The notes below the pieces were generated by a model. It did no database searches. It was not told where the DNA came from and worked only from the letters and a program-made list of their open reading frames with translations. The position numbers and the translations under genes were made by a program. From NCBI GenBank assembly GCA_964016885.1, contig OZ024765.1:22382001-22446000 (forward strand): DNA of 64,000 nucleotides, in the 5' to 3' direction. Numbering within the stretch: position 1 is the stretch's first letter; each line of letters starts with the position of its first letter. This document shows, piece by piece, positions 48 to 63,830 of the stretch. Origin of the DNA: Eledone cirrhosa (Eukaryota).

Positions 48-320
48 TGAATTATTTCCGTAGGAAAGGTAAAGGAAAGGAGAGTGCTCTATGTATGCTA
101 CAGAGCTATTTAATTATGTAATAAACATCATAAGACAATTATTCCATTTACCAAAGGTTTCACGAAGACAGACGAGCTCAACAGAGACGTCTGAAATCAC
201 TCATCAGAATGAAAATTTAATCATTCTGATGAGTGATATCAGACGTCTCTGTTGAGCTCGTCTGTCTTCGTGAAACCTTTGGTAAATGGAATAATTGTCT
301 TATGATGTTTATTACATAGA
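48..320. mobile_element. Hammerhead palindrome element 1 (family A); inverted repeat 115-318 plus tail on the left
   Basis: Arms ~115-212 and ~221-318 are near-perfect reverse complements. Short TA runs flank both sides. Each arm carries one hammerhead. Confidence 0.85.
221..289 (+). ncRNA. Minimal type-I hammerhead ribozyme (mirror copy 145-212 on -)
   Basis: catt-CTGATGA-(stem II gtga..cagacg/cgtctg..tcgt)-GAAA-cc ttt gg-TA-aatg. Stem I is catt/aatg and the cleavage triplet is GUA. Confidence 0.8.
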
Positions 321-336
321 CTATATATATATATAT

Positions 337-384
337 GGTGCCCCAGCATGGCCTCAGCCGGATGGCTGAAACAGGTAAAAGAAT
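337..384 (+). mobile_element. 3' end fragment of an octopus-type SINE
   Basis: ggtgccccagcatggcc...ctgaaacaggtaaaagaat matches the 3' end of the common octopus SINE from memory; not database-verified. Confidence 0.55.
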
Positions 385-389
385 TTAAT

Positions 390-470
390 TATCAAAGTTC
401 TTTCGTCACACACCTGTGACATCATCAGTGGTACTATTATGTTTCCTCCTGTTGTATTGTGATATATATA
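390..470 (-). ncRNA. Solo PLE pseudo-LTR fragment with hammerhead-like motif (390-433)
   Basis: Reverse strand reads cca-CTGATGA-t-gtcaca ggtg tgtgac-GAAA-gaac-TT-tgata. It is homologous to 43327-43400, downstream of the PLE ORF. Stem I is weak. Confidence 0.6.
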
Positions 471-542
471 TATATCCTGAATAGTTTTTTTCCTTCTATT
501 TATCTAATTTCCATATCTCTATCTTTATGTTACTTTATCCAG

Positions 543-931
543 GTGACTGGGAGACAGCGAAGGAACTGGAGGAGCTGTATGGAGATGTGGAAGCCGTGGA
601 GTTCCTTGTGGGCGTGATCTGTTCACGGAGGGCTTACCACGCCATGTTCAACCTGATGGTACAGGAGGCCGGGGCCCTTCTCTCCCTGCAGAGCCTCCAA
701 GCCAGCTTGCTCTACATGAAGGCTAGGGGCTTGCTCGTTAACTATGGCAGCTCCGTTGTCCACAGAATGGTTAATACTGCCAGCTATCACAGCTTGATCT
801 GCAACAACATCAACCAGTCATGTCCCCTCGTCAGTTTACAAGTCCCTTGGTGGGATATTTACAACGAAGAAGCTTTCAACATGTCAGAAAAAGATGCAGA
901 AGAGATTGGCTGCGAAATGAGTGAATTCTGA
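543..931 (+). CDS. PTGS: Terminal coding exon of a divergent prostaglandin G/H synthase (cyclooxygenase)-like gene; upstream exons lie outside the window
   Basis: The translation [24 protein letters not shown]...F...[11 protein letters not shown]...[26 protein letters not shown] aligns by eye with the COX C-terminus ([24 protein letters not shown]...F...EMGAPFSLKGL...VKTATLKKLVCLNTKTCPYVSFHVP). A pyrimidine-rich tract and CAG acceptor end at 542 and give a phase-1 intron inside the Gly codon, as in the last intron of vertebrate COX genes. Stop is TGA at 929-931. Confidence 0.85.
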
Positions 932-59842: not shown

Positions 59843-60060
59843 ATATATATATATATATACATATGTATACATTAATGTACATATATATATATATATATAT
59901 ATATATATATATATATATATATATATATATATATATACATATGTATACATTAATGTACATATATATATATATATATATATATACATATGTATACATTAAT
60001 GTACATATATATATATATACATATGTATACATTAATGTACATATATATATATATATATAT

Positions 60061-60243
60061 GAGCAAACATCACGGACGCTCTATCTCAAAATTATTTTTG
60101 AAAAGCATTAGAAATGCGCAACCGGTAAAACTTAAAACCAAAACTGAATACTAACCAATACTATTACTAATTCTCACTTATTCCTAATTAAACTATTTTT
60201 CACTGTGAACAATTTGTCAGCATTTTCTTTTCCGTTTACCAGT
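60061..60243 (-). repeat. Dispersed repeat homologous to the spacer of the 1505-1982 inverted repeat
   Basis: Its reverse complement aligns with ~1667-1858. Confidence 0.8.
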
Positions 60244-60531
60244 ATATATATATATACATATGTATACATTAATGTACATATATATGTATATATATATATA
60301 TATATATATATATACATATATATATATATATGCATACACATATATAATGACTGCGACTCAATTTTGACTAATGCCATCACTTAATACTTAACAATGATAT
60401 ACATATATATATGTATATATATATATGTATATAATATATATATATATGTATATATATATATATATATATATATGGTAGAACTAGAGAATCTATGGTAGAA
60501 CTAGAGAATCTATGGTAGAACTAGAGAATCT

Positions 60532-61461
60532 ATGGTAGAACTAGAGAATAAATTCCAAACCTGGAAGCAGGGACTAGAGAGAAAGGGCCTCAAAGTCAAC
60601 ATGACAAAGACTAAGGTCCTTATAAGTAGACGAGAAAACAGAACCCAGATCCCCTCAGGGAAATGGCCTTGCTCAGTATGTAGGAAAGGTGTAGGTAGGA
60701 ACTCCATTCTTTGCCCCAAATGCAAACAATGGGTACACAAGAGATGTAGCGGGATCTCAGGAAGCTTAATTAAGAATGTAGGATTCACATGCAGCAGCTG
60801 TGCTGAAACAGCAAGCAAACAGCCACAGGAAACAAGTACCACCAATCTCTGGGAGGGCCCTGTAGAAACAGTAGACAGCTTCTGCTACCTAGGTGACCGA
60901 ATTAGCAACGGAGGTGGGTGCTCAGAAAGTACAATAACTAGGGTAAGAACGGGATGGAAGAAGTTTAGGGAACTACTACCACTGCTAGCTGCAAAAGGCT
61001 TCTCCCTCAGAATGAAAGGCAGACTGTATGATGCGTGTATCCGAACAGCGATGTTGCATGGTAGTGAGACCTGGGCGCTGAAGGTGGAAGACCTACGTAG
61101 ATTAGAGAGAAACGAAGCCTGCATGCTCCGATGGATGTGTAACAGTAATATACGTGAACGACAAAGCATAAATGAATTGAGAGAGAGACTGAGCATAAGA
61201 GGAATCAAATGCTGCGTGCAGGAGAGGCGGTTACGCTGGTATGGACATGTGATGCGTATGAAGGATGACAGCTGCATAAAAAGGTGCAGAGCACTAGAAG
61301 TTGATGGAAACCGCGGAGTGGGGAGACCCAAGATGACTTGGGATGAGGTGATAAAAGCCGACCTTACCCAACTACACCTCTCAAAGTCAATGACACACGA
61401 CCGTGACTTCTGGCGTCACGCAGTAATACAGGGTACCCGACCTCCCATGGGTACATGCTGA
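60532..61461 (+). CDS. RTE-clade LINE ORF, 5'-truncated (RT C-terminus with Cys-rich insertion)
   Basis: GLKVNMTKTK, WPCSVCRKGVGRNSILCPKCKQWVHKRCS..C..C, FCYLGD, LHGSETW, RLRWYGHVMRM and GRPKMTW; uninterrupted to the stop. The 3' UTR (61462-61762) ends in (GAT)n. Confidence 0.9.
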   Translation: MVELENKFQTWKQGLERKGLKVNMTKTKVLISRRENRTQIPSGKWPCSVCRKGVGRNSILCPKCKQWVHKRCSGISGSLIKNVGFTCSSCAETASKQPQETSTTNLWEGPVETVDSFCYLGDRISNGGGCSESTITRVRTGWKKFRELLPLLAAKGFSLRMKGRLYDACIRTAMLHGSETWALKVEDLRRLERNEACMLRWMCNSNIRERQSINELRERLSIRGIKCCVQERRLRWYGHVMRMKDDSCIKRCRALEVDGNRGVGRPKMTWDEVIKADLTQLHLSKSMTHDRDFWRHAVIQGTRPPMGTC

Positions 61462-63294
61462 AGCATATAAACAATATGCCCCCCCCCCCCCCACCGCAAG
61501 GTGGTCGTGGAGGTGCCACGGCAAAAAAGCACCCAGCCCACACTGTAAAGTGGACGTGTAGGCGCCACGAAAAAGCACCCAGCACTCACTGTAAATGAGG
61601 TTGGTGTTAGGAAGGGCATCCAGCTGTAGAAATCAAGCCAGATCAGTTCCTGTATGAGCAAGGCATGGTCAGCCGACCAGACACTGCCCACAACAGGACA
61701 ACCCGTCTAACCCATGCTAGCGTGGAAGAACGGACGTAAAACGGTGATGATGATGATGATGATATATACATATATGTCTCTGTCTCTGTGTATATATATA
61801 TATATATACATATATGTCTGTGTGTGTGTATATATATATATATATATACATATATGTCTGTGTGTGTATATATATATATATATATATACATATATGTCTG
61901 TGTGTGTATATATATATATACATATATGTCTGTGTGTGTATATATATATATATATATATACATATATGTCTGTGTGTGTGTATATATATATACATATATG
62001 TCTGTGTGTGTGTATATATATATATATATACATATATGTCTGTGTGTGTGTATATATATATATATATACATATATGTCTGTGTGTGTGTATATATATATA
62101 TATATACATATATGTCTGTGTGTGTGTATATATATATATATATATACACATATATATGTGTTAGTGTGTGTATATATGATTGTCATGAGAGAGAGGAGAG
62201 GAGAGGAAGAGAGTCAACTGAAATCAATAAATAAATAAATGATGTTTGTTTTTGATGAAATGTCGCGAAAAGGTGAAATGATGGAAGGAGACGTGGGTGG
62301 GGTGGGGGTAGTGGGGGGGAAGTCGTCATAGTGAAAGTAATAGGGGCGGAGGTGTAGAAGATAGTGAGGTGAGGGTGCAGGTAATGAGGTGGGGCTGGGG
62401 GGAGGGTGAGGGTGCAGGTAATGAGGTGGGGCTGGGGGGAGGGTGAAGGTAGCGAGGGAGAGGTGTAGGGAAGATAGATTTACTACATACCCACCTCCCA
62501 AGCAACTACCCTAAAAGGAAAGTAGAATTTGAAAAAGAATCTGGTCCCCCCCCCCCCTGCACTCTCCTCCCCACATACCTCTCCCTCCTACCCCAAACCC
62601 TGCCTGCCCCTCCTAATTCCTTAACATTAAAACAAAAGCCAGTAAGAATTTCTTAGATAGAACTAATAAATAAACATTTGTCCCGATCCTGTCCCCCAAT
62701 AGCCCCCAACTCCTCACCCAATCCCCCTTACTAACACCAACACTAACCCCCCCCCGCACTAACACTCCCCTCCCCCAACCCAACACCCCAACCGTGCTCC
62801 TCTCACCCCCAACCATGCCCCCCTCATCCCCCAACCATGCCCCCCTCACCCCCAATCATACCCCCCTCACCCCCCAACCCCACACCAACACCCACCAGCT
62901 GCCGCTACCCCCACCAGAAAATAACCGTAAAAAAACAACCACCACCAACAACAACAACACCCCACTCCCCCGCCCGAGATAGATCCAGAAATATCTTGTA
63001 GGGTCAAAGGAGAACTGCCACACCTCCCAACCTCCAACAGATTGGTCAGATAGAATCGAAGATGGCGTCTGATTAATTGAAGCAGATTGGTCAACGCTAA
63101 GATTAGTCTCTTATGATTAATTGGATGTGATCATAAAACTGTGAGTACCAAAGAAAGCATATGTTTGGCTGCTTAGCTGCCATGTATTTTGAGCAATATA
63201 TGTGTGTGTGTGTGTGTGTATATATATATATATATATATATATATATATATGTATGTATGTATGTGAATATATATATATATAGAGAGAGAGAGA

Positions 63295-63830
63295 TTTTGA
63301 GTATATGTTGGTTGTATACCAACACCTCAGTATGCATATTGAAGCACTCGACGAAGTGCGCAGGTTGGTTTGGTTTCTCCGGAGTAATGTAAAATAAAGT
63401 AAGATAAATAAGTCAAATGTTTAAAATTTAGCTTCGTTTATTACTGCTATATATATTTCGGTGACAGCCATCTTTGGCTGTGACCTCTTCAGGCAGTCCG
63501 AATTAGTGTGGTATAGACAAGTACATATGTTGTTGAGGTGTATAATATTGTCAATACTCTGATATACCCAGTTCCTGGTTGGGTTGTTATTTCACTGAGG
63601 AACTGGAATCATATGAATCATGTGAAATAACAACCCAACAAGGAACTGGGCATATCAGAGTATTGACAATATTATACACCTCAACAACATATGTACTTGT
63701 CTATACCATACTAATTCGGACTGCCTGAAGAGGTCACAGCCAAAGATGGCTGTCACCGAAATATATATAGCAGTAATAAACGAAGCTAAATTTTAAACAT
63801 TTGACTTATTTATTTTACTTTATTTTTTTA
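63295..63830. mobile_element. Hammerhead palindrome element 6; inverted repeat 63391-63826
   Basis: Arms 63391-63595 / 63622-63826, flanked by (TA)n/(GA)n on the left and (TA)n on the right. Confidence 0.9.
63720..63774 (+). ncRNA. Minimal type-I hammerhead ribozyme (mirror copy 63443-63497 on -)
   Basis: actgc-CTGAAGA-ggtcacagcca aaga tggctgtcacc-GAAA-tatata-TA-gcagt. Stem I is a perfect 5 bp, and AATAAA follows immediately. Confidence 0.9.

Follow-up and report, generated by a model that had tools for sequence, protein, structure and literature searches.

The window analyzed here, a stretch of 64,000 bp of the Eledone cirrhosa genome (GenBank assembly GCA_964016885.1, contig OZ024765.1, positions 22,382,001 to 22,446,000 of the forward strand; contig C26 in our numbering of the 3.0-Gb assembly), contains six long palindromes whose arms carry hammerhead ribozyme motifs. 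Our main finding is that these palindromes are very probably doubly 5'-truncated insertions of Penelope-like elements (PLEs), and not a self-copying unit. They are a real and common feature, in which new families of the Hydra clade of PLEs leave inverted insertions of a known kind in doubly truncated form, and the short palindromes form the extreme of a continuous range that takes in ordinary inverted PLE insertions. Each consists of two 5'-truncated copies of an element 3' end, the pseudo-long terminal repeat (pLTR) with its hammerhead, joined head to head within a (TA)n repeat. As to their origin, we favor on balance the reading that this structure is remade whenever an element inserts, from a pair of cDNAs primed on the same RNA.

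A first-pass annotation, made from the letters of the window alone, had listed six near-perfect inverted repeats in about five sequence families. Self-BLAST of the window recovered all six as its non-microsatellite palindromes, with arm-to-arm identities of 93.1-99.0% and with mismatches and indels between arms; a weak extra match at 5546-5607 (81%) is microsatellite-rich. Elements 1 and 3 have arm ends and tails in common and the rest are separate, which leaves five families among six elements. The annotation had also placed the palindromes in or beside TA repeats. The TA association stands. The elements are not symmetric: one arm, and only one, is extended by a previously missed tail of 53-101 nt, itself followed by a TA-type repeat, while the opposite arm adjoins (TA)n directly. 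The layout is thus (TA)n-tail-arm-center-arm-(TA)n (Table 1).

Table 1. Palindromic elements, their tails and single hammerhead copies, in positions of the window
Feature	Positions	Strand	Details
Element 1 tail	49-114	-	About 66 nt; GCTC/GAGC stem; matches element 3 tail
Element 1 palindrome (family 1/3)	115-318		(TA)n from 322
Element 1 hammerheads	minus: C3 207 to H17 149; plus: C3 226 to H17 284
Element 2 tail	3404-3490	-	Follows (TA)n 3365-3403
Element 2 palindrome (family 2)	3491-3845		Hammerheads 3592-3543 (-), 3745-3794 (+); then (TA)n
Element 3 palindrome (family 1/3)	4835-5192		Hammerheads 4918-4873 (-), 5094-5139 (+); (TA)n 4801-4833
Element 3 tail	5193-5245	+	53 nt; most relatives have about 70 nt
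Element 4 tail	39322-39414	-	93 nt
Element 4 palindrome (family 4)	39415-39728		Hammerheads 39509-39471 (-), 39634-39672 (+, stem-I mismatch)
Element 5 tail	59328-59428	-	101 nt; runs on into ORF start in full-length copies
Element 5 palindrome (family 5, young)	59429-59842		Atypical hammerheads 59591-59483 (-), 59680-59788 (+)
Element 6 tail	63294-63390	-	97 nt
Element 6 palindrome (family 6)	63391-63826		Hammerheads 63492-63448 (-), 63725-63769 (+); (TA)n 63829-63889
Single family-2 copy with tail	42282-42548	-	Hammerhead 42468-42419; between TA runs
Single hammerhead 40801-40747	40710-40830	-	Ends at (TA)n; family palindromic elsewhere (L065, L066, L212)
Single hammerhead motif	40038-40103	-	Descriptor match

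Longer copies elsewhere in the assembly run from the arms into coding sequence. Family 5 includes copies of about 3 kb with the order pLTR-tail-ORF-pLTR (ORF, open reading frame); direct pLTRs are present at loci L134, L135, L137 and L138, and L136 combines them with an extra inverted arm. In L064 (family 6), a tail arm of 228 nt is joined to an inverted arm of 3.3 kb that bears reverse transcriptase (RT) and GIY-YIG domains. Arms of family 2 (L082/L201, L245) and family 3 (L203) likewise continue upstream into an RT plus GIY-YIG ORF, and that of family 4 (L199) into the GIY-YIG end only; family 1 is tied to a parent ORF only via its likeness to family 3. With parent ORFs joined to families 2-6, the link to autonomous PLE pLTRs that the first-pass annotation had proposed as a check is in place, and so is the Penelope-like origin, with hammerheads in the pLTRs, that it had suggested.

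According to Craig et al. 2021 (PMC8557442), the Hydra clade has RWK, DKT in place of DKG, a CxCX5C linker, no CCHH, and CxxC/CxH flanking conserved E and N; its ORF is single and generally <3 kb, and it inserts into (TA)n. In E. cirrhosa, the order RT then C-terminal GIY-YIG is seen in families 2, 3, 5 and 6, with family 4 represented by the endonuclease (EN) end only. The family-5 N-terminus has RWK and DKT, and the family-2 parent has DKT. The CxCX5C linker is found in families 2, 3, 5 and 6 (the region was not recovered for family 4) and CCHH in none; CxxC occurs in families 2-6, and CxH is clear in families 4 and 5. The pLTRs contain a type-I hammerhead, of an atypical version in family 5. 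The family-5 period is 2.96-3.2 kb, and database homologues are mostly about 700 aa long. Among five protein pieces run against Pfam, one gave GIY-YIG, below threshold (E 0.0064), and no Pfam family was returned for the RT-EN ORF of the window or for the family-5 RT. Judged from these motifs, with references compared by eye, the arms belong to Hydra-clade C-terminal EN+ PLEs.

To examine copies globally, we ran tail-anchored searches for five families, which gave 138-1,032 candidates each; the best 40 were scored and 30 kept. Across about 150 genomic copies, arm length varies from about 40 nt to >3 kb. The outer ends are fixed, at the pLTR end on one side and at the pLTR end plus tail on the other, in unrelated flanks on many chromosomes, whereas the inner ends differ between copies, from about 25 nt to >2 kb. 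An inverted arm lies adjacent at 18 of 29 loci in family 5, a young family with tails 98-100% identical, at 15 of 29 distinct loci in family 6 and at 19 of 28 in family 4. When the five sets are pooled, 93 of 150 loci (duplicates counted) have an inverted tail-less end, and TA repeats adjoin 82 of these 93. One very young head-to-head insertion is a 1.8-kb palindrome (L061:62-1886) with arms 99.5% identical and a GIY-YIG end in each. Palindromes tailed on both arms are a minority form (L142/L148, L151/L152, L189, L010), and L003, L004 and L007 are one family-6 palindrome inside a larger duplicated unit. The insertion at L036 has five empty-site relatives, every one already with a TA run. Accordingly, creation of the TA runs by the element itself is unsupported, this being the sole clear empty-site case and two others being ambiguous.

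The arms themselves hold information on how they formed. At subfamily-diagnostic sites, the two arms of a locus carry the same haplotype in 94 of 95 comparisons in family 5 and in 96 of 103 in family 6, where the discordance expected between loci is 46%. Agreement is 24/26 in family 2, 32/38 in family 4 and 70/81 in family 1/3 (expected between-locus discordance 44-56%). Either arm can be the longer: loci with equal arms, a longer tail arm and a longer tail-less arm number 6, 6 and 6 in family 5, 5, 7 and 7 in family 4, and 1, 6 and 8 in family 6. Since the tail-less arm is sometimes longer, fold-back of a tail-primed cDNA alone is insufficient. Junctions in family 5 overlap by 0-4 nt in 12 of 18 copies, with small templated insertions in some. 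Inner ends cluster at family-specific hot spots, arms starting at -221 to -232 in 11 of 15 head-to-head loci of family 6 and at -152 to -166 in 13 of 19 of family 4; the latter hot spot, at which the center of element 4 sits (-159), is also used by 4 of 9 non-adjacent (solo) loci. The corresponding hot spot lies at about -225 in family 6 and at -205 in family 5. Starts at -135 in family 2 and near -195 in family 1/3 proved to be reference-divergence artefacts. We also considered hot spots as splice acceptors and rejected this, as a pyrimidine tract and AG lie nearby in some families at inconsistent offsets. Two junctions cross families: in L202 (349-3542) an arm of family 3 is fused to an ORF of family 2, and L126, which is similar, is a head-to-head junction of two PLE families; neither has a TA run between.

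The tails of unrelated families have a feature in common. A stem, RCTC...GRGY, stands at the tail start in 11 of 16 tails, compared with 0.02 expected in shuffles. Five tails of the window served to define the motif; of 10 further tails from a genome sample (described below), six have it, four of them from unrelated families. Its variable pair is A-U in eight tails and G-C in three, and the three G-C tails are related, such that they amount to roughly one compensatory event. The stems of different families did not align in MAFFT, and the motif count was used in its place. We found no description of a similar stem in the available text of the PLE literature. The conserved stem is a candidate recognition signal for the element protein.

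We infer that two cDNAs are made from one RNA because of the shared haplotypes, the greater length of either arm, the hot spots and the fusions, together with in vitro data on the Poseidon protein (PMC11167929), which cleaves both strands of the target and extends them, initiates at two sites that delimit the tail, and has been modelled as a dimer. The element protein would cut both strands of (TA)n; one target end would prime at the tip of the tail, its partner 50-100 nt upstream of there, beside the conserved stem. Each cDNA would then extend to the end of the RNA or to the point where the enzyme dissociates, and end-joining with a microhomology of 0-4 nt may connect the two cDNA 3' ends. 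The family-specific inner hot spots likely correspond to an RNA 5' end within the pLTR; in Drosophila virilis, transcription of Penelope begins within the upstream pLTR (PMC2377424). As for PLEs in general, PMC8557442 states the origin of their inverted repeats and tails to be unresolved.

Several observations weigh against this reading. Scoring the best 40 candidates per search biases the sample toward young copies. No intact single ORF is present among the copies fetched, each having frameshifts or stops. Equal arm starts occur at scattered positions in 6 of 18 family-5 copies, for which the permutation mean is 0.67 and 0 of 20,000 permutations reach 6; the excess is non-significant in family 4 (P 0.10) and family 6 (P 0.77). 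Three family-6 loci (L039, L040, L041) keep a few tail-arm bases past a perfect center and then skip, and some asymmetric copies are therefore deletions from symmetric ones. The center of L003 is flipped relative to the flanks when compared with L004; recombination between arms therefore goes on after insertion, and some of the haplotype agreement could be due to conversion. Finally, both cross-family fusions could be deletions between neighbors.

The most serious competitor, which we regard as possible though rather doubtful, is that a single cDNA (or an antisense template, as in Arkhipova 2013, PMC3846280) folds back and copies itself into a perfect palindrome, later central deletions creating the asymmetry. 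Self-priming was proposed in that paper, and the process would account for the haplotypes common to both arms, the equal-arm excess of family 5 and the perfect centers preceding the skips. However, equal-arm centers lacking a loop, with an overlap of 2-4 nt (L097, L100, L118), would make a weak hairpin primer; L064 would require the loss of 3.1 kb with one endpoint precisely at the hot spot of its family; the solo family-4 copies stop at their hot spot without folding back; and L202 joins two families. An artefact of assembly or of long-read fold-back is extremely improbable. Contigs from three DNA-type runs of one sample were aligned to element 5 and none crosses its center; yet the tails are one-sided, the arms differ by mismatches and indels, copies on many chromosomes keep their fixed outer ends although their flanks are unrelated, and the same layout is reported in other animals (PMC3846280, PMC8557442).

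The first-pass annotation had instead taken the palindromes for ORF-less, PLE-derived retroelements, a view under which they would be transcribed whole and spread as units in the manner of a short interspersed element (SINE) or retrozyme family. An initial family-6 search agreed with this, 24 of 27 copies on many chromosomes being head-to-head with near-identical center and size, and the strong inner hot spots, confined to windows of about 12-15 nt, speak for it too. But that query contained the center and was biased toward a fixed one; repeating the search with the tail as query, as for the other families, returned variable centers and unique junctions, and largely refutes unit spread. Any given left/right asymmetry is shared by at most 4 of 38 family-6 loci, and the most frequent one is present in both directions. 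Centers and junctions vary where a SINE-like unit, or one like a miniature inverted-repeat transposable element, would have a fixed inherited internal structure, and the arms are inverted where a retrozyme would have head-to-tail same-sense repeats. With arm lengths also variable and longer copies continuing into RT/GIY-YIG ORFs, the label of ORF-less palindromic retroelement is not supported, and we consider unit spread improbable.

Hammerheads in the window were counted with a type-I descriptor in strict and loose modes, with 100 block-wise dinucleotide shuffles of the window as controls. The strict mode found 12 motifs (9 arms, 3 singles) against a shuffle mean of 0.02, and the loose mode 15 (12/12 arms, 3 singles) against 0.09; the shuffle maximum was one motif. 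The enrichment expected by the annotation is therefore clear, and its four singles are roughly right: three pass the descriptor (Table 1), and two more, near 391-430 and 43326-43372, have a weak stem I. Its claim of a full core in every arm is correct at the loose level, but not every arm is canonical: the 39634 arm has a stem-I mismatch, and each arm of element 5 combines a C.A mismatch at 10.1/11.1 with a UU site and a stem II about 90 nt long. This atypical form is a family trait, present in 23 of 23 family-5 matches. An Rfam scan gave no hammerhead among the best 150 of 311 matches, the top ones being miRNA-like hairpins; hairpins and microsatellites match miRNA models.

Every arm's hammerhead faces outward, and the sense core lies in the 3' arm of either strand. 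A transcript of either strand would thus fold into a long hairpin containing a sense ribozyme and an antisense one, as had been predicted from the letters and as the motif layout and folds bear out. Folding of the whole elements predicts complete pairing of the sense core in all 12 cases, and the antisense arm is transcribed first on either strand. Minimal hammerheads need an intramolecular dimer of same-sense copies (PMC4209133); a palindrome has one sense copy per strand, and therefore cannot form a dimer of that kind. The ribozyme is predicted to be locked in a hairpin within any transcript that crosses the center, and activity would need transcription starting at or beyond it. The hammerheads may be passengers, paired shut in center-crossing transcripts.

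The genome-wide load was assessed in 40 evenly placed 10-kb stretches (399,800 bases), drawn from the assembly apart from seven chromosomes and the unplaced contigs. They contain 30 hammerhead motifs, against 0.5 in 10 shuffles, 11 of them in one tandem array and 19 dispersed. As a rough estimate, scaling this 400-kb sample gives about 1.4 × 10⁵ dispersed hammerheads per 3.0 Gb (bootstrap 0.5-2.5 × 10⁵), in keeping with the very large ribozyme load that the annotation had surmised; with 15 motifs in 64 kb, the window is roughly threefold denser than the sample. The tandem array (L218:281-3381) consists of 310-bp units with a type-I hammerhead each (11 copies in the stretch) and looks like a non-LTR retrozyme. 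The sample also holds 26 palindromes (25 by script, 1 by eye), of which 21 adjoin TA at one end and 16 have the order TA-tail-arm-arm-TA. Only four of the 26 include a descriptor-passing hammerhead; ribozymes in both arms are therefore not a genome-wide rule.

The architecture as such is not new: earlier papers already report inverted pLTRs, tails, hammerheads, opposite-strand hammerhead pairs, (TA)n targets and a Hydra family in octopus. The Hydra clade elements of PMC8557442, including Hydra-1_Obim of Octopus bimaculoides, have like motifs, a length of about 3 kb, (TA)n targets and a pLTR hammerhead. The paper lists one octopus family and PLE tails of 30-40 bp, in contrast to at least five families and tails of 53-101 nt here, where short doubly truncated palindromes are the common form. 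Penelope insertions in Adineta vaga and D. virilis (PMC3846280, PMC2377424) also have a head-to-head inverted pLTR, a palindromic junction, a tail on one arm and variable arms, the first three being described by Arkhipova 2013. Those were described from few copies, mostly flank an ORF and have target-site duplications; in E. cirrhosa such duplications are unreadable inside (TA)n, and the ORF is lost from both arms in many copies. The motifs resemble the minimal hammerheads of Cervera 2014 (PMC4209133) in their short palindromic stem III and long stem II, and dual minimal hammerheads in Schistosoma lie 100-700 bp apart on opposite strands. Counts in that paper are 2,000-9,000 per genome, well below our estimate, whereas the axolotl has 126,247 motifs (PMC7229834; bioRxiv 10.64898/2026.07.22.740005). 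The non-LTR retrozymes of these last two sources are also ORF-less, PLE-related and endowed with a type-I hammerhead; however, they are head-to-tail tandems whose same-sense ribozymes can dimerize, unlike the head-to-head arms here with one sense copy per strand.

What is new is the haplotype usually common to both arms, the greater length of either arm, the family-specific 5' end clusters, the two cross-family fusions and the stem common to unrelated tails. A literature search that covered subscription journals thinly found neither a cephalopod-type genome count of hammerheads or head-to-head PLE palindromes nor a test of twin priming for PLEs, and the main text of an O. vulgaris repeat paper (PMC13282606) has no 'hammerhead' or 'palindrom'. 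The value of the present case lies in its scale and mechanistic clues: very many natural products, including those of a young family, make double priming and fold-back testable against each other by junction counts. If the rough load estimate holds, PLE insertions make up most long palindromes of the genome, with possible effects on double-stranded RNA (dsRNA) load and DNA stability. A wider proposal, which we put forward tentatively and hold to be rather unlikely, is that Hydra elements shed short pLTR RNA (hot spot to tail, about 250-330 nt), recognized by the protein via the tail stem and inserted by double priming. They would thereby seed on the order of 10⁵ hammerheads together with long near-perfect palindromes, a ribozyme load denser than any other known, and would feed editing and small-RNA pathways as a major supplier of hairpin dsRNA.

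Other features of the window include an open frame of 560 aa (43631-45313, minus strand) that encodes a PLE RT plus GIY-YIG of another clade, Neptune/Nematis-like by its CX4CxxC linker and CCHH as seen by eye. Its 5' end is cut by a 28-bp satellite, and the weak hammerheads near 43326-43372 and near 391-430 are related; related pLTRs are palindromic too (L216). Long satellite arrays (units of 18, 28, 43-45, 65, 81, 28 and 40 bp) at 8375-35409 and 45252-54417 occupy about half of the window. Outside it, ORF pieces at L062:4991-6849 (minus strand) resemble what we take to be a Helitron replication-helicase protein.

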